Of a DNA stretch of 64,000 bases, positions 1,657-61,753 are shown in pieces. Source of the stretch: an uncultured Candidatus Saccharibacteria bacterium (GTDB lineage: Bacteria; Patescibacteriota; Doudnabacteria; UBA920); assembly GCA_964631145.1 (NCBI GenBank), contig CAZVXT010000001.1, positions 319,361 to 383,360 on the forward strand, given 5' to 3'. The position numbers and the translations under genes are program-made. Each line of letters opens with the position of its first letter. Position 1 is the stretch's first letter. The notes beneath the pieces are model-generated. The model was not told the DNA's origin and did not search any database. It was given only the letters and a program-made list of their open reading frames with translations.

Positions 1657-1772
1657 TAATTAATATTTCTCTACTATGATTGGGATTAGGTTTCCAATAG
1701 CTTTGTATTAAATTTAAATTTGATAATAAGCTTTTGGTAATCTCCCTAAATTGTAGAGACAAGGAAAGATTT

Positions 1773-4103
1773 ATGGAGAAAAAAATAATTTCTCTTGATA
1801 TAGCTGGAAAAACTTTGCAGCTAGAAACAGGAAGACTTGCTGGACAAGCTAATGGTGCTGTCTTGGCTCGTCTTGGTGATACTGTAGTTTTGGCAACTGT
1901 GGTGATGAGTAAAACTGCTCGTGATGGTATAGACTTCTTCCCTCTTTTGGTTGATTATGAAGAACGTTTGTATGCAGCAGGAAAAATTAAAGGCAGTCGA
2001 TGGGTTAAGCGCGAAGGTCGTGCTACTGACGAAGCTATTTTAAGTGGTCGAGTAATTGATCGTAGCTTGCGCCCGATGTTTCCTGAAGGTATGCGCAATG
2101 ATGTTCAAGTGGTTGCAACTATTTTGTCTGTTGATGGAGAAAATGATCCAGATATGGTTGCTGTAAATGCAGCTAGTGCGGCTTTGCATATTTCTAATAT
2201 TCCTTTTGATGGTCCAATAGCTGGTGTTCGTGTTGGTAATATAGACGGGCAGTTAGTAATTAATCCAACTAATGAGCAACGCGAAAAATCTAATTTAGAT
2301 TTGATTGTTTGTGGTACTGCCGAGCATATTATTATGGTAGAAGCTGGTGCTGGGTTGGTTGCTGAAGAAGAGATTGTAAAAGCAATAGAATTTGCTCAAG
2401 GCTACTTAAAGCAATTATGTGGTTTGCAAGAAGATTTTCGTAAAGAGGTTGGTGTAGAAAAAACTACTCCAATCATTAAAGAGATTAATCCTCAAGTATT
2501 AGACCAGGTCAAAGCTTTTTTGACAGATGAAAAAATCGAAGCCGCTATTTATGTTAGTAGTAAAGAACAACGCGATCAAAATGTCAGAGATTTAACTGCC
2601 GAATGTTTGGATCTTGTAAATCAAGCATTGTCTTCGGAAGATTTGGATATTAATATTGCCAAAGAAGTTAATACTGCTATTGATAAGATTTTAAAGAAGT
2701 ACCAACAAAAGCAAATTTTAGAAAAAGACAGACGTGTTGATGGTCGAGCTATGAACCAAACCCGTCAAATTAGTTGTGAAGTTGGAGTTCTACCTCGTAC
2801 TCATGGCTCTGCCCTCTTTACACGCGGTGAAACGCAAGTTTTAACTGTTGTAACTTTAGGAAGCAAAGGCGATGAGCAATTGCTAGATGGTGTAGAAGAT
2901 CCAGTTGAAGGTCGCGGCAAGAGATATATTCACCATTATAATATGGCTGGCTTTAGTGTTGGAGAAGTTTCTCCAATTCGCGGACCCGGTCGTCGAGAAA
3001 TCGGACATGGCGCACTCGCGGAGCGTGCTGTTGAAGTAGTGTTGCCAGCACAAGAAGACTTCCCTTACACAATGCGTTTGGTTTCTGAAACTATGTCTTC
3101 AAATGGTTCTACATCTATGGCTTCTACATGTGGTTCTACTTTAGCTCTTATGGATGCCGGTGTTCCTATTAAAGAAGTTATTGGTGGAGTTGCTATGGGT
3201 CTTGTTATGGATGAATCTAATCCAAACAACTTTAAAGTCTTAACTGACATTGCTGGAATTGAAGATTTTAACGGACATATGGACTTTAAAGTTACTGGTA
3301 ATGAAAGCGGTGTTACTGCACTTCAGTTAGACATTAAAGTAAAAGGTTTAACTGCACAAATTTTGGCACAAGCTTTGTCTGAAGCAAAGCCAGCAAGACT
3401 TCATATTTTGAGTAAAATGAAAGAAGCTTTGTCCGAGCCGCGCCCAGACCTTTCCCCTTACGCACCTCGTATAACTAGCTTTATGATTAAGCCTGATCAG
3501 ATTCGTGAGGTTATCGGAAGTGGTGGTAAAACAATTAATGGAATTATTGCTCAGTGTCCGGGGGTTAAGATTGATATAGAAGACGATGGTTTGGTGATGG
3601 TTGCATCAACAGATGCAGAAAGTGCTACCCGCGCAGTTCAAATGATTAAAGATATTGTCCGTGAAGTTATGCCAGGGGAAATTTTTGAAGGTAAAGTAGT
3701 TCGTCTTATGGACTTCGGAGCTTTCGTAGAAATTTTGCCAGGTAAAGATGGAATGGTTCATGTTTCTCAGCTTGCAAATTACAGAGTTGGTAAACCGGAA
3801 GATGTTGTTAAAGTAGGAGATACTTTGAAGGTTCAGGTTTCTGAAATAGACGAGCAGGGTAGAATTAACTTAACTCATAAGCCTTTTGCTGCTCCGGCTC
3901 CGGAAGGTAGCCAGGATGACAGTAGAGGAGATCGTGGCTCCAGAGGTGGTTATGACAGACATGATAGAAAGCCAAGGTTTGGTGGTGGTAGAGGACGTGG
4001 CGGCGATCATCATGGCGGTAGTTCTAGGCATCATAATGACAACGAAAGATCACATGGACACGCTACTCCATCAAAACCTTCTCGCCCACCAGAAGAATTT
4101 TAG
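1773..4103 (+). CDS. pnp: polynucleotide phosphorylase (PNPase) with an unusual RGG/His-rich C-terminal tail
   Basis: The sequence is PNPase-like throughout, with two RNase PH-like halves and KH/S1 regions. I prefer the ATG at 1773 (MEKKIISLD, preceded by AAGGAAAG) to the TTG at 1734. The last 70 aa are low-complexity (GDRGSRGGYDRHDRKPRFGGGRGRGGDHHGG...). Confidence 0.92.
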   Translation: MEKKIISLDIAGKTLQLETGRLAGQANGAVLARLGDTVVLATVVMSKTARDGIDFFPLLVDYEERLYAAGKIKGSRWVKREGRATDEAILSGRVIDRSLRPMFPEGMRNDVQVVATILSVDGENDPDMVAVNAASAALHISNIPFDGPIAGVRVGNIDGQLVINPTNEQREKSNLDLIVCGTAEHIIMVEAGAGLVAEEEIVKAIEFAQGYLKQLCGLQEDFRKEVGVEKTTPIIKEINPQVLDQVKAFLTDEKIEAAIYVSSKEQRDQNVRDLTAECLDLVNQALSSEDLDINIAKEVNTAIDKILKKYQQKQILEKDRRVDGRAMNQTRQISCEVGVLPRTHGSALFTRGETQVLTVVTLGSKGDEQLLDGVEDPVEGRGKRYIHHYNMAGFSVGEVSPIRGPGRREIGHGALAERAVEVVLPAQEDFPYTMRLVSETMSSNGSTSMASTCGSTLALMDAGVPIKEVIGGVAMGLVMDESNPNNFKVLTDIAGIEDFNGHMDFKVTGNESGVTALQLDIKVKGLTAQILAQALSEAKPARLHILSKMKEALSEPRPDLSPYAPRITSFMIKPDQIREVIGSGGKTINGIIAQCPGVKIDIEDDGLVMVASTDAESATRAVQMIKDIVREVMPGEIFEGKVVRLMDFGAFVEILPGKDGMVHVSQLANYRVGKPEDVVKVGDTLKVQVSEIDEQGRINLTHKPFAAPAPEGSQDDSRGDRGSRGGYDRHDRKPRFGGGRGRGGDHHGGSSRHHNDNERSHGHATPSKPSRPPEEF

Positions 4104-42401: not shown

Positions 42402-42586
42402 TTTAATTTTTTGAAAATTTCTTTGTCAGAATCTCCGCTACTCATTCGTCGTACCTTTTCAGTACGACTCATTCGCTGCTCGATTCTTTCGCGAACTTTT
42501 CTAAAAAATTTAATTACCTTAGATACGAATATTTTTCCAATCTAGTTTTTAAATAAAACTATTTTGAATTCAGAAAGGAAACTCTC
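42402..42586 (+). repeat. structured spacer element (copy D) related to the S10-operon hairpin repeats
   Basis: It shares the TTTTTGA...CTTTGT left tail and the ...GGAAACTC right tail with those copies. The core hairpin is AGAATC...GTCGTAC-CTTTTCA-GTACGAC...GATTCT with an internal ACTCATTCG direct repeat. It fills an unusually long S12-S7 spacer. Confidence 0.5.
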
Positions 42587-43090: not shown

Positions 43091-43121
43091 ATTTGAACTT
43101 TTAAAATTTGGGAAAATAAAT

Positions 43122-43151
43122 AGAGTTACTAAGTTTTTTCTTAGTAACTCT
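43122..43151 (-). terminator. terminator hairpin for the antisense small-gene pair
   Basis: Perfect 12-bp stem AGAGTTACTAAG/CTTAGTAACTCT with a U6 loop. A U-rich tract follows on the minus strand. Confidence 0.5.
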
Positions 43152-43158
43152 CGTATGG

Positions 43159-43368
43159 TTAAGGTTTAATTAGTCCTATGGAAACTATTACAACCTTGAG
43201 TTTATTATTTTTACTTTTTATCTTGAAATCGTTAATAACTTTTTCAGATACCGCATTTATTTTTTCTGTTGTATCCAGATAATCAGTGGTTTCCATAATA
43301 ACTCCTTGCAAATCAAACTGCATTTTAAAAAAAGAATAAGCCAAGACTGTAAATAAGTAGATTTTCAT
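43159..43368 (-). CDS. hypothetical small protein with a hydrophobic N-terminus
   Basis: 69 aa. GGAGGG lies upstream. It overlaps the upstream gene by ATGA. Confidence 0.5.
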   Translation of the reverse strand: MKIYLFTVLAYSFFKMQFDLQGVIMETTDYLDTTEKINAVSEKVINDFKIKSKNNKLKVVIVSIGLIKP

Positions 43369-43607
43369 TTTTTCCCTCCAGTATTTTTCTTAAACTCTGT
43401 ATAGCCCCAAGCAATTAATCCTAATAATATAGCTAGCCCTAATCCTCTTTTGGAAAAGATAAAACTATAAAACCAAGCATCAATTGCATCGCCAACCGTA
43501 TGGGTGGACGTTGTTTCCATTATTTGTTGTAGCCCGCTGTAAAGCAGAACATAAAACACTAGAACCATAAGAAGTCCTACAAACAGATTGAATATAAAAT
43601 TATTCAT
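43365..43607 (-). CDS. hypothetical two-TM small membrane protein
   Basis: 80 aa. GGAGGAAA lies upstream. It is antisense within the rpsG-fusA spacer. Confidence 0.55.
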   Translation of the reverse strand: MNNFIFNLFVGLLMVLVFYVLLYSGLQQIMETTSTHTVGDAIDAWFYSFIFSKRGLGLAILLGLIAWGYTEFKKNTGGKK

Positions 43608-43679
43608 AAATTTCCTCCAAGTTTTAAATTTATCATATTATATCATAAAAAATTAAAAAGTCAAGTATAATTAAATTAT

Positions 43680-56405: not shown

Positions 56406-56512
56406 TAGATTTAGTAGATATGTTCTGAGAGCTTCTAGCCTAAATAGCTACAGCATTCAGATAACTATTTACCATCATGTTTAAGCCCATCTTTTTGGTG
56501 TACTTTTATATG

Positions 56513-56540
56513 CTGGGAAATAGTCCCAGTTTTTTATTTT
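56513..56540 (+). terminator. terminator-like hairpin between rpsJ and rplC (possible attenuator)
   Basis: Stem CTGGGA-AATAG-TCCCAG followed by T6, inside a 198-nt spacer. Confidence 0.4.
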
Positions 56541-56603
56541 TATATCAGTAATTAAAGTTCTGAAGTTTGAATTTTTCCCAAACCTCTCAGTTCCAGATAA
56601 TAT

Positions 56604-57272: not shown

Positions 57273-57282
57273 GGAGATTTAA

Positions 57283-57395
57283 TTTTTGACGAATCACTTC
57301 GTTGTTTTCTGAAAAAATTTGGAAGCGTAATAACTGTTACGTTGACAAATTTTTTCAGAAAACACCTTGTGCTTCATTCAAAAATGAAACTCCTA
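57283..57395 (+). repeat. extended-hairpin intergenic repeat, copy A (rplC-rplD spacer)
   Basis: The 17-bp outer stem TTTTCTGAAAAAATTTG/CAAATTTTTTCAGAAAA (57305-57321 and 57346-57362) encloses the inner hairpin CGTAA-TAACTG-TTACG. It shares conserved flanking tails with copies B, C and D. Confidence 0.7.
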
Positions 57396-57447
57396 GGATA
57401 AAAAACAGTTTTGATAACCTACTAAATTGAATTTATTTTTTATATAA

Positions 57448-58495: not shown

Positions 58496-58505
58496 GAAAA
58501 TTCCA

Positions 58506-58600
58506 TTTTTGATTATCTACTTTGTTCTTTTCTGAAAAAATTTGTCGACGTAACAGCTATTACGCTTCCAAATTTTTTCAGAAAACCCCTAGTATATAAT
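58506..58600 (+). repeat. extended-hairpin intergenic repeat, copy B (rplW-rplB spacer)
   Basis: It has the same 17-bp outer stem as copy A (about 58528-58544 and 58569-58585). The apex TCGA-CGTAA-CAGCTA-TTACG-CTTC is the reverse complement of A's apex. Confidence 0.7.
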
Positions 58601-58659
58601 TCAAAAATAAAATTTTCTTAAAGGTTGAATTTTTAAATAACTTTATCTCACTAAATTAA

Positions 58660-59821: not shown

Positions 59822-59844
59822 TTTAATCAATTCAATTATAGTTA

Positions 59845-59900
59845 GTAGAAAGTAAAGTAGAGAACGGAAAATCTTTCTATATTCTACTTTACCTTCTACT
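59845..59900 (+). repeat. 17-bp inverted repeat in the rpsS-rplV spacer
   Basis: GTAGAAAGTAAAGTAGA pairs with TCTACTTTACCTTCTAC (1 mismatch) around a 22-nt loop. Confidence 0.55.
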
Positions 59901-59916
59901 TACTAAATGTAAATTT

Positions 59917-60477
59917 ATGGCCGAAAAGTCAGTACAATCTAATAAGCTCGTTAAGGCTCACGCAAGAAACCTTCGTATCTCTCCTCGCAAGCTTAGATTA
60001 TTAACAAATCTAGTAAAGCAAAAAAATGCTGAACAAGCATTAATGCAACTCCAATTTGCTAATAAAAAAGGCGCGGACATGGTTACTAAGTTGTTACAAT
60101 CTGCATTAGCCAATGCTCGTAATAACTTCTCTATGGATCCAGCCCGCATGTTCATTAAGTCTATTACTGCAGATATGGGTCCTGTGCTCAAAAGATCTTT
60201 TCCAAGAGCACGTGGTAGTGCATTCCTTATTCGTCGCAAGTTGTCTCATTTAAGCGTTGTCTTAGAAGAAGCAGCTTTGCCAAAGAAGTCTGTACCTGTT
60301 AAAAAAGCTGCAGCTAAAACTAAAGCAACTCCAGTAAAGACTAAAGAAGGTACAGTAGGTTTGCCAAAAGAGTCATCTAAGAAAATTACTCGAGGCAGCA
60401 AGGCTTCAGAAGTTCATCACGAAAATGAATCATCTAAGCGCGCGCAAGAAACTAGCAATCAGAATTTAGTAAAATAA
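59917..60477 (+). CDS. rplV: 50S ribosomal protein L22 with a 70-aa Lys-rich C-terminal extension
   Basis: ARNLRISPRKLRL...MGPVLKRSFPRARGSAF is the L22 core. It is followed by ALPKKSVPVKKAAAKTKATPVKTK... Confidence 0.92.
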   Translation: MAEKSVQSNKLVKAHARNLRISPRKLRLLTNLVKQKNAEQALMQLQFANKKGADMVTKLLQSALANARNNFSMDPARMFIKSITADMGPVLKRSFPRARGSAFLIRRKLSHLSVVLEEAALPKKSVPVKKAAAKTKATPVKTKEGTVGLPKESSKKITRGSKASEVHHENESSKRAQETSNQNLVK

Positions 60478-60493
60478 TTTTTATTAATTAATT

Positions 60494-61126
60494 ATGGGTC
60501 ATAAGATAAATCCAACATCATTAAGACTAAAAGTGACTGACACTTGGAAATCCAAATGGTTTTCCAAAGCAAACTATGCTGAGCAGTTAAAAGAAGATAT
60601 CAAGATTCGTTCTTATTTAGAACTTCATCTTCGCAAAGCAGGTTTAAGTCGCATTGACATCGAACGTCTAAACGACGGTGTGGTAACTATAGTAATTCAT
60701 ACCAGCAAGCCTGGTGTGATTAATAGAGGTACTGGTGTCGAAGAGCTTAAGAAGAGACTAAAAGATAAAGTCGGGATTCGCAAAGAAATTCGCGTAAGAG
60801 TTGAAGCTGTTGTAAACATGAATTTGTCAGCTCAAGTTATCGCTAATAATATTGCGGAACAAATCGAAAAGCGCGCTGCTTTTAGACGCTTAATGAAGCA
60901 AACATTAGAACAAGTTATGCAATCTGGCGCTAAAGGTGTAAAGGTTGCTATCGGTGGACGTTTGAATGGTGCAGAAATTGCTCGTACAGAACACTTGTCT
61001 GCTGGTAAAATTCCTCTTCATACCATTCGTGCAGATATCGACTTTGCTCGTTCTACTGCTCATACCACTTATGGAACTATTGGTATAAAAGTGTGGATTT
61101 ATCGCGGCGACATCTTTAAGAAATAA
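60494..61126 (+). CDS. rpsC: 30S ribosomal protein S3
   Basis: MGHKINPTSLRL with the KH domain and S3 C-terminal domain. Confidence 0.95.
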   Translation: MGHKINPTSLRLKVTDTWKSKWFSKANYAEQLKEDIKIRSYLELHLRKAGLSRIDIERLNDGVVTIVIHTSKPGVINRGTGVEELKKRLKDKVGIRKEIRVRVEAVVNMNLSAQVIANNIAEQIEKRAAFRRLMKQTLEQVMQSGAKGVKVAIGGRLNGAEIARTEHLSAGKIPLHTIRADIDFARSTAHTTYGTIGIKVWIYRGDIFKK

Positions 61127-61140
61127 GTACTCTAATTTTG

Positions 61141-61245
61141 AAGAATTGCTTTGTTATTTTTTCAAAAGAATTGTCGTCGTAAAAAGTATTACGCCTCCAA
61201 TTCTTTTGAAAAAAATGCCTCGCACTTCATTCAAAATTAAAGCAC
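61141..61245 (+). repeat. extended-hairpin intergenic repeat, copy C (rpsC-rplP spacer)
   Basis: The 17-bp outer stem TTTTTTCAAAAGAATTG/CAATTCTTTTGAAAAAA (61157-61173 and 61198-61214) carries compensatory changes relative to A and B. The inner CGTAA-AAAGTA-TTACG and the shared tail CACTTCATTCAAAA are present. Confidence 0.7.
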
Positions 61246-61345
61246 TCAATAATAGTCAGTTATATTATTTTTAACAAAGTTTTCCAACTGTATAAAAATA
61301 AATCATTCAAGACATATCGTTTTTTTATAGACAAAATTTTAAATT

Positions 61346-61753
61346 ATGTTAATTCCTAAGAAAGTAAAACACCGTAAACATCATCGCGGTAATAATAAAG
61401 GTAAAGCTACTTCTGGTAATTTTATTGCTTTTGGCTCATTTGCGCTTAAAGCGTTAGAAGGATCATTTGTAACTGCTCGCCAAATAGAATCTGCTCGCCG
61501 TGCGATGACTCGTAGTGTCCAACGCGGTGGTAAAATCTGGATCAGAGTATTTCCTGACAAGCCAGTTACAGATCACGGAAACGAATCTGTGATGGGTAGC
61601 GGTAAAGGTGCAGTTTCTCATTTCGTAGCTGTTGTAAAAAAAGGTCGCATCATGTTTGAAATGGACGGTGTTACCGAAGCTCAAGCTCGCGAAGCTATGA
61701 GACTAGCAGCTCATAAGTTACCAGTCAGAACTAAATTCCTGATCAAGGAATAA
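61346..61753 (+). CDS. rplP: 50S ribosomal protein L16
   Basis: [15 protein letters not shown], the L16 N-terminus. Confidence 0.95.

Follow-up and report, generated by a model that had tools for sequence, protein, structure and literature searches.

Palindromic repeats that are transcribed from intergenic DNA are, as a kind, already well known. In the Proteobacteria, the REP/BIME and ERIC sequences are transcribed extragenic palindromes that lie after stop codons within operons, shield the upstream mRNA from 3' exonucleases and vary in their stems in a compensated manner; REPs themselves measure 20-40 nt, have GTAG at their head, are present as hundreds of copies and go together with RAYT genes. 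The hairpins processed by RNase III in phage T7 early mRNA and in rRNA intervening sequences are positionally conserved and functionally required. The Correia elements of Neisseria (CREE/NEMIS) are often co-transcribed with neighbouring genes, and RNase III binds or cleaves the hairpins in their mRNA, which alters expression (PMC2649163).

We analysed a hairpin, copy C, that lies in the spacer between rpsC and rplP (ribosomal proteins S3 and L16) within a 64-kb stretch of DNA, hereafter the window. Copy C shares with REP/BIME and ERIC sequences its place as a palindrome, presumably transcribed, after a stop codon inside an operon and the compensated variation of its stem, but departs from the RAYT-associated REP/BIME type in that the element is ~105 nt long, carries CTTTGTTA instead of GTAG, is present in three copies and has no Y1 transposase gene accompanying it in the window. 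Its likeness to Correia elements lies in the intergenic location, the size (~100-155 bp), the inverted-repeat ends and the presence/absence polymorphism between strains; however, the sequences showed no detectable relationship, TA target duplications were not seen here, three copies occupy one operon of the window as against hundreds dispersed in the case of Correia, and it is the 5' motif and the inner loop, not terminal repeats, that are conserved. As with the RNase III processing hairpins, long imperfect double-stranded RNA stems with internal loops stand between genes of one transcript, yet the present element, a putative RNase III substrate, is not positionally conserved. Integron attC sites, dif/Xer sites and TIGR arrays appear to be unlikely matches, the core-site consensus, tandem arrangement or cassette context being missing.

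Taken as a whole, the evidence makes it fairly probable, in our judgement, that copy C is one of three paralogous, non-coding palindromes of ~105 nt, similar to MITE, REP or Correia sequences, that were inserted in, and lengthened, intercistronic spacers of the S10/spc operon of a Patescibacteria (CPR) bacterium. We found no description in the literature of such elements in the ribosomal operons of Patescibacteria (CPR). What is new is the family, its confinement to ribosomal-protein operons of a CPR clade, and the randomisation of its stem under strict Watson-Crick pairing.

Setting and anatomy of copy C

The S10/spc ribosomal-protein operon occupies the final 8 kb of the window on the + strand, in the order rpsJ, rplC, rplD, rplW, rplB, rpsS, rplV, rpsC, rplP, rpmC, rpsQ, rplN, rplX, rplE, rpsN. 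The GC content of the window is ~34%, and because its GC skew is positive throughout, the + strand was taken to be the leading strand. The nearest genomes by S3 protein were uncultured Patescibacteria/CPR assemblies, some of which carry the labels Doudnabacteria or Saccharibacteria, and the exact S3 protein is on record in an NCBI contig and in Logan assemblies. The spacer holding copy C was identical in two independent Logan assemblies, L001 (SRR12712853) and L168 (SRR12712865); the hairpin is therefore real, and the concern that its arm complementarity might be an artefact of assembly was put to rest.

Both RNA and DNA folds (z = -8.1 and -7.0, respectively) placed the whole extended hairpin at 61133-61239 on the + strand (~107 bases), so that it begins 8 nt before position 61141, where the initial annotation had started it. 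It starts 7 nt past the rpsC stop codon (61124-61126), and with the rplP start at 61346 the gap between the S3 and L16 genes measured 219 nt (61127-61345), in agreement with the 220 nt first reported. The 5' strand of the outer helix P1, TAATTTTGAAGAATTG (61133-61148), paired with 61222-61239 in minimum-free-energy structures; its last G is the first base of the P1c segment TGC, the C of which, at 61149, overlaps the unpaired 5' motif CTTTGTTA (61149-61156), a motif nearly invariant across the family in alignments A3 and A4. There follows the 5' arm of P2, TTTTTTCAAAAGAATTG (61157-61173), which forms Watson-Crick pairs at 17/17 positions with the 3' arm, CAATTCTTTTGAAAAAA (61198-61214), exactly the perfect 17-bp duplex that had been described. 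Between the arms lies an inner core (61174-61197) made up of the loop TCGT, the P3 strand CGTAA (61178-61182), the loop AAAGTA, the P3' strand TTACG (61189-61193) and the loop CCTC, that is, a 5-bp helix with a 6-nt closing loop. The 3' motif ATGCCTCG and then the 3' strand of P1, GCACTTCATTCAAAATTA, complete the element (61215-61239), their pairing being seen in the folds. The internal loops are thus 7 x 7 (CTTTGTTA facing ATGCCTC of the 3' strand) and 4 x 4 (TCGT and CCTC). A sequence read in the initial annotation as a conserved tail, CACTTCATTCAAAA, is indeed present at 61223-61236, but its conservation is partial (12/14 in copy A and ~10/14 in copy B by our own count), and in the folds it is no separate tail but the 3' strand of the outer helix, pairing with 61133-61148. 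From the hairpin to the rplP start runs an AT-rich, weakly structured leader with no Shine-Dalgarno sequence (61240-61345, + strand), which is part of the expanded spacer. All small open reading frames in the spacer had TTG starts and encoded 24-42 aa, and none was credible.

The predicted RNA fold of copy C (-36.2 kcal/mol) was far more stable than those of dinucleotide shuffles (-13.1 ± 2.8 kcal/mol; z = -8.1), none of 200 of which was as stable, and the covariance model R1 matched copy C at 83.2 bits (E = 3e-16) over 61149-61223. In a sliding 110-nt fold of the whole window copy A was the most stable segment and copy C the seventh, the segments ranked between them being richer in GC and holding several small hairpins. 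The four longest local inverted repeats of the 64 kb were a hairpin at 59826-59918 followed by C, A and B, all in this operon.

The S3 protein encoded here is 210 aa long and ends in ...GDIFKK (rpsC 3' end, 61109-61126). All listed S3 relatives are longer (215-242 aa), and the C-termini of the 10 relatives examined carry an extra short tail that is mostly rich in lysine and glutamate; the insertion of copy C may have replaced the final few codons of rpsC. Direct reading of the sequence before rplD, rplB, rplV, rpsC and rplP (57420-57447, 58630-58659, 59900-59916, 60478-60493 and 61320-61345) revealed nothing resembling a Shine-Dalgarno sequence, the leaders being simply AT-rich.

Paralogous copies and the wider family

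Copy A (57282-57385, + strand; R1 82.5 bits) lies in the rplC-rplD spacer and copy B (58505-58608, + strand; R1 88.4 bits; fold z = -8.2) in the rplW-rplB spacer, where it is identical in assembly L168. Both fold like C (z ~ -8), and their P2 arms are identical to each other. The inner stem, CGTAA/TTACG, is the same in A, B and C, as had been claimed; in the outer 17-bp duplex, however, an ungapped comparison of the arms gave four differences per arm between C and A/B rather than the six initially counted. These fall at positions 5, 7, 12 and 14 of the 5' arm and 13, 11, 6 and 4 of the 3' arm, exact mirror images, and every one of them is compensated by a Watson-Crick partner, the four swaps from A/B to C being C-G to U-A, G-C to C-G, A-U to G-C and U-A to A-U. 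Three further compensated pairs were read from the sequences of the outer helix of C and A (CAC/GTG to TGC/GCA; ATTTTTGA/TCAAAAAT to AATTTTGA/TCAAAATT), which brings the number to seven over the whole hairpin. Residual similarity between A and B was also present in the part of their spacers that corresponds to 61240-61345.

Two further properties of these hairpins were recorded. First, the inner 24 nt of copy A (57322-57345) are the reverse complement of the core of B (58545-58568), with 2 mismatches as opposed to 10 in direct comparison, while the arms and flanks of A stay in direct register with those of B; the difference between the two cores is a small inversion bounded by the 17-bp arms. 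Second, in A, B and C one DNA strand folds as well as the other (z = -7 to -8.7). When R1 was run over the 64 kb with filters off, nothing other than A, B and C (E ~1e-16) scored above 18 bits. A fourth copy, D, had been listed with these; the hairpin at 59839-59905, which is probably the one meant, scored 18 bits (E = 0.1) against ~82-88 bits for A, B and C, and was not retained in the family. All three copies thus sit within 57.3-61.2 kb in one operon, and none occurs in the other 56 kb of the window, a stretch that contains the str operon and numerous tightly spaced gene junctions.

Several related CPR lineages carry members of the family to which the element belongs, and the gene junctions that these occupy differ from genome to genome. 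At least nine copies were found elsewhere, in four other CPR lineages, all of them in ribosomal-operon spacers; the loci of the relatives were centred on the ribosomal operon and sampling was biased accordingly, so that operon specificity is established for the window alone. L166 has a copy in the S19-L22 spacer and a second one after L5, truncated by the end of the contig; L162 (GCA_034680565.1) has one in the L16-L29 spacer and a variant after SecY; L173 (GCA_022842405.1) and L174 have copies in the L5-S14, S8-L6 and L18-S5 spacers and a variant at L6-L18; and L008, a Falkowbacteria genome, has one on the opposite strand of the S5-L15 spacer. Eleven of 12 family copies are oriented like the genes, on the GC-skew leading strand, and the hairpins consistently stand just past the upstream stop codon. 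A loose regular expression for the core had produced many false matches in GC-rich genomes and was replaced by a stricter pattern and the covariance model; because the 3' arms of the copies in L162 and L166 came out misaligned in MAFFT, R1 was built from six cleanly aligned copies (alignment A4), and the copies outside A4 were checked by hand-segmented comparison. A single pattern match in a viral contig lay inside a GC-rich phage tail-fibre gene with no hairpin and was set aside as a chance match.

Conservation across the family was distributed very unevenly over the hairpin. Between genomes, CTTTGTTA was 96% identical and the inner loops and P3 ~69-77%, as against 36-38% for the P2 arms, which is roughly chance for this composition. 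The core is kept as TCGN-CGT...ACG-CCTC in L162, L166 and L008 and as TCA-CCGT...ACGG-CTC in L173/L174, and of the 3' motif ATGCCTCG, TGCCTCG recurs in the L173/L174 copies. P2 nevertheless was paired at 14-19 of its 17-19 positions in every copy. In A4, 92% of cells were paired, compared with 80% in shuffles and 40-56% with slid partners, and 13 of the 23 pairs changed on both sides. Extension to copies from other genomes thus bore out the covariation suggested by the initial annotation: 11 of the 17 stem pairs of P2 changed two-sidedly and none one-sidedly, and 0/500 shuffles reached the covariation score. Pairwise changes of P2 between copies were likewise all two-sided, no G·U pair occurred in P2 in any copy, and the few mismatches were pyrimidine-pyrimidine. 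The long stem, in short, is randomised in sequence yet strictly Watson-Crick, while the 5' motif and inner core are conserved and one core is inverted. Rfam at gathering thresholds gave no match on the hairpins in the window and nine related loci, a search at E <= 10 over 56-64 kb gave only sub-threshold matches to microRNA-like hairpins, and blastn of the whole spacer against plasmids and phages gave nothing.

At the orthologous S3-L16 junction, the closest available relatives lack the element. The spacer of 219 nt compares with 1-27 nt in L162, L163, L164, L166, L172 and L176, in which S3 is ~77-81% identical and the coding DNA on both sides of the spacer is clearly alignable. Moreover, the element turns over between strains that are ~98% identical in DNA: L173 and L174 have identical S3 proteins and aligned DNA that is 94.7-98.9% identical (mostly 96.5-98.9%), and they differ at six spacers by the presence, absence or replacement of the whole spacer (S8-L6, 10 vs 253 nt; L18-S5, 27 vs 198 nt; and also L14-L24, L3-L4, S19-L22 and S17-L14). 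Spacers in the clade are either tight (0-30 nt) or sporadically expanded by a hairpin of ~70-250 nt, a pattern that indicates rapid gain, loss and exchange, unlike a conserved regulatory site. By eye, no consistent target-site duplication could be made out beside A, B and C or at the junctions of L173/L174; whole spacers appear to have been replaced.

In relatives, spacers of these kinds also hold hairpins of other families, unrelated to this one. A second kind, seen here in the rpsS-rplV spacer (59839-59905) and also in spacers of L002, L003, L005, L082 and L173, has arms of periodic 7-8-nt units with TAG or GTA and complementary units in the 3' arm (L003 repeats TAGCTTGT four times, L005 repeats TAGTTGT, and the window has GTAGAAA/GTAAA/GTAGAGAA); the unit period of 7 or 8 places TAG in all three reading frames, and in L003 such a hairpin stands in nearly every operon spacer. 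A third family, TGTCATTCTGAGCG..AGCGAAGAATCTC...GATCCTTC..GCTCAGGATGACA, fills many spacers of L173, L174 and L162 (for example L173 5812-5910, 7679-7765 and 12544-12616); we know of no name for it, and sequences like it are common across the genomes of environmental bacteria. The L14-L24 spacer of L174 contains a nested piece of 55 nt, flanked by the 7-nt direct repeat CTCAGGA, that is absent from L173.

Further structured or enlarged gaps were recorded. The rpsJ-rplC spacer (56406-56603, ~200 nt) is long and contains a structured element that is conserved, GUAGAUAnGUUCUGA...UCAGAUAACUAUUURCC, with a terminator-like hairpin (56512-56530) and then a T-run behind it. Ten CPR relatives keep this arrangement, among them the ones whose spacers are tight elsewhere; no Rfam family matched the element, which is a candidate for an attenuator responsive to ribosomal protein, lying downstream and not upstream of rpsJ. 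In the str operon, unusually large gaps lie between S12 and S7 (185 nt, 42402-42586) and between S7 and fusA (589 nt, 43091-43679), the latter holding two small ORFs on the minus strand (69 and 80 aa), of which the longer looks membrane-like. Upstream of tgt, the intergenic segment 6361-6470 is GC-rich and strongly structured (-38.4 kcal/mol per 110 nt, the second most stable of the window), with three hairpins, the last followed by a T-run, and no Rfam match at the gathering threshold. In the related CPR contig L082, positions 933-1028 matched the Rfam family Alpha_RBS, the alpha-operon ribosome binding site, at 46.9 bits.

Origin of the compensated stem

The core of the earlier reading, that C is a diverged paralogue of A and B in which every arm difference is compensated, stands and is partly supported. 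The step from compensation to a selected RNA structure is not secure, since the changes are Watson-Crick only, both strands fold, the core of A is inverted, the element is absent from orthologous spacers and hops between them, and one copy is reversed. The compensatory changes probably reflect maintenance of the palindrome at the DNA level, not a conserved regulatory RNA, and RNA-level selection through G·U intermediates is unlikely. Complementarity, including the four compensated pairs of C, would be kept in DNA by template switching within the palindrome, which would homogenise the arms, and/or by selection for a hairpin or cruciform that is recognised through its conserved motifs by the machinery copying the element.

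Template switching has been shown to give rise to hairpins and preserve them, and to cause loop inversions as well as compensatory changes of several bases (PMC8794818; PMC8604942). Watson-Crick-only compensation over several bases, perfect stems, an inverted core and strand symmetry are what template switching within a palindrome produces, and the four swaps of C together with the inverted core of A show exactly the patterns of such quasipalindrome mutation. Template switching is, however, a mutational mechanism and not an element family, and it leaves the conserved motifs and the spread between spacers unexplained. The conserved 5' motif and core point to sequence-specific recognition by something, either at the DNA level by a copying machinery or at the RNA level, and the 96% conservation of the 5' motif could equally be explained as that of an RNA-level recognition site.

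Two features expected of a miniature inverted-repeat element were found. The terminal inverted repeats (AATTTTGA...TCAAAATT in C, ATTTTTGA...TCAAAAAT in A and B) pair as the outer helix, and presence/absence polymorphism at orthologous sites was seen both in the S3-L16 spacer and between L173 and L174. Many dispersed copies were not found, the window holding three in 64 kb, all in one operon, and no transposase, integrase or RAYT-type gene was among the 57 window proteins scanned against Pfam. The placement of all copies in ribosomal-operon spacers is odd for a selfish element that inserts at random and hints at targeting or function.

That placement is one of several observations consistent with a selected cis-acting RNA of the ribosomal operon, whether it signals processing or stability between cistrons or is bound by a ribosomal protein, which we regard as a possible but less likely explanation. 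Recognition would then run through CUUUGUUA and the UCGN/CCUC loops, with the long stem merely a helix, and the element would punctuate the mRNA and tune the neighbouring cistrons. Such an RNA would account for strong covariation of P2 alongside conserved unpaired motifs (5' motif 96%, core ~70-77%), for the known copies being all in ribosomal-operon spacers with none in the other 56 kb of the window, for the co-orientation of 11/12 copies with transcription, for the hairpin's consistent position right after the upstream stop codon, and for the lack of a terminator U-tract. It fits poorly, however, with the finding that no orthologous junction is conserved, the element being absent in close relatives and polymorphic between ~98% identical strains, with the opposite strand of the L008 copy, and with the inverted core of copy A, by which the RNA of that copy is left without the motifs. 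The comparison with the rpsJ-rplC leader is telling in this respect: there, 13/20 pairs covary with many G·U intermediates (e.g., UA:5/UG:5 at one pair), unlike the family studied here, in which neither G·U pairs nor one-sided changes occur. The unrelated hairpin families in the same kinds of spacers of relatives and the lack of any Rfam match further argue against it; despite strong covariation, the orthologous position, G·U intermediates and strand specificity of a conserved cis-regulatory RNA were not found. It is doubtful, in turn, that the element is more than selfish and represents an undescribed class of 'operon punctuation' RNA specific to ribosomal-protein operons of Patescibacteria, with a stem that is hypervariable yet strictly paired and with conserved loop motifs (CUUUGUUA; UCGN/CCUC) that a dedicated RNase or ribosomal protein would read, and that it spreads because each insertion is useful; if it were such an RNA, its motifs would guide processing between cistrons or would uncouple the translation of cistrons where genomes have no Shine-Dalgarno sequences.

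A specific version of the mobile-element reading, which we consider unlikely, is that the hairpin descends from a single-strand DNA transposon, whether a PATE of the IS200/IS605 type or an element of the REP/RAYT type, with a tyrosine HUH transposase encoded elsewhere in the genome and the hairpin and flanking motifs acting as recognition and cleavage signals. A conserved foot and internal loop on a variable stem would be expected for structure-specific recognition, and the strand bias (11/12 copies on the GC-skew leading strand) and the lack of a visible target-site duplication on direct reading of the sequence agree with it, but neither a Y1/HUH transposase nor a RAYT gene was found in the window, a single hairpin of ~105 nt makes up the element in place of two short subterminal ones, A, B and C are without a conserved GTAG head, and the copy number is very low.

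A terminator or attenuator that works without a U-tract and creates an expression gradient along the operon is very improbable: the hairpin is indeed very stable and directly follows a stop codon, but the stem is AT-rich where an intrinsic (Rho-independent) terminator has a GC-rich stem with an immediate U-tract, no T-run follows the stem, the terminator scan was negative, and three or four strong terminators in an essential operon of ~25 genes would leave those farther downstream poorly expressed. A chance inverted repeat or assembly artefact, for which AT-rich composition (~34% GC) alone would speak, has a negligible probability given that 0/200 shuffles fold as well, model E-values are ~1e-16, the sequence is identical in two independent assemblies and homologous copies exist in other genomes.

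Predicted consequences for the mRNA and for the clade

Copy C, for which we favour the reading as a mobile palindromic spacer element, is predicted to affect the message in which it lies. A scan for promoters and terminators left A, B and C unflagged and showed no enrichment of promoter-like sites, and their AT-rich stems are followed by ...CAAAATTAAAGC with no T-run. An element in an essential, co-directional operon with no U-tract is expected to be transcribed into the polycistronic mRNA, where it would form a hairpin of ~45 bp, 7 nt past the rpsC stop codon. That hairpin would be predicted to block 3'-to-5' exonucleases such as PNPase, which is encoded at 1734-4103 of the window, either as a by-product or as an effect exploited secondarily. 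It is also a plausible substrate for the double-strand-specific RNase III, the 17 bp of P2 and the flanking helices (~45 bp in total) exceeding the helix length of ~20 bp or more associated with that enzyme. Translational coupling between S3 and L16 would be broken, and rplP would depend on fresh initiation on the AT-rich leader of 106 nt.

Few gene clusters of bacteria are as conserved and as densely packed as ribosomal-protein operons, and CPR genomes are extremely reduced; fast-turnover palindromic inserts of 70-250 nt between essential genes are therefore unexpected. In practical terms, such inserts fragment assemblies and shift gene spacing in the block of marker genes used for CPR phylogenomics. 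They also counsel caution, because textbook 'compensatory covariation' can come from palindrome dynamics at the DNA level and is by itself no evidence for a functional RNA. For the organisms themselves, the finding means that the clade tolerates, or perhaps exploits, these inserts, and it bears both on how an operon is expressed once translational coupling is broken and on how palindromes persist in organisms with reduced sets of repair genes.
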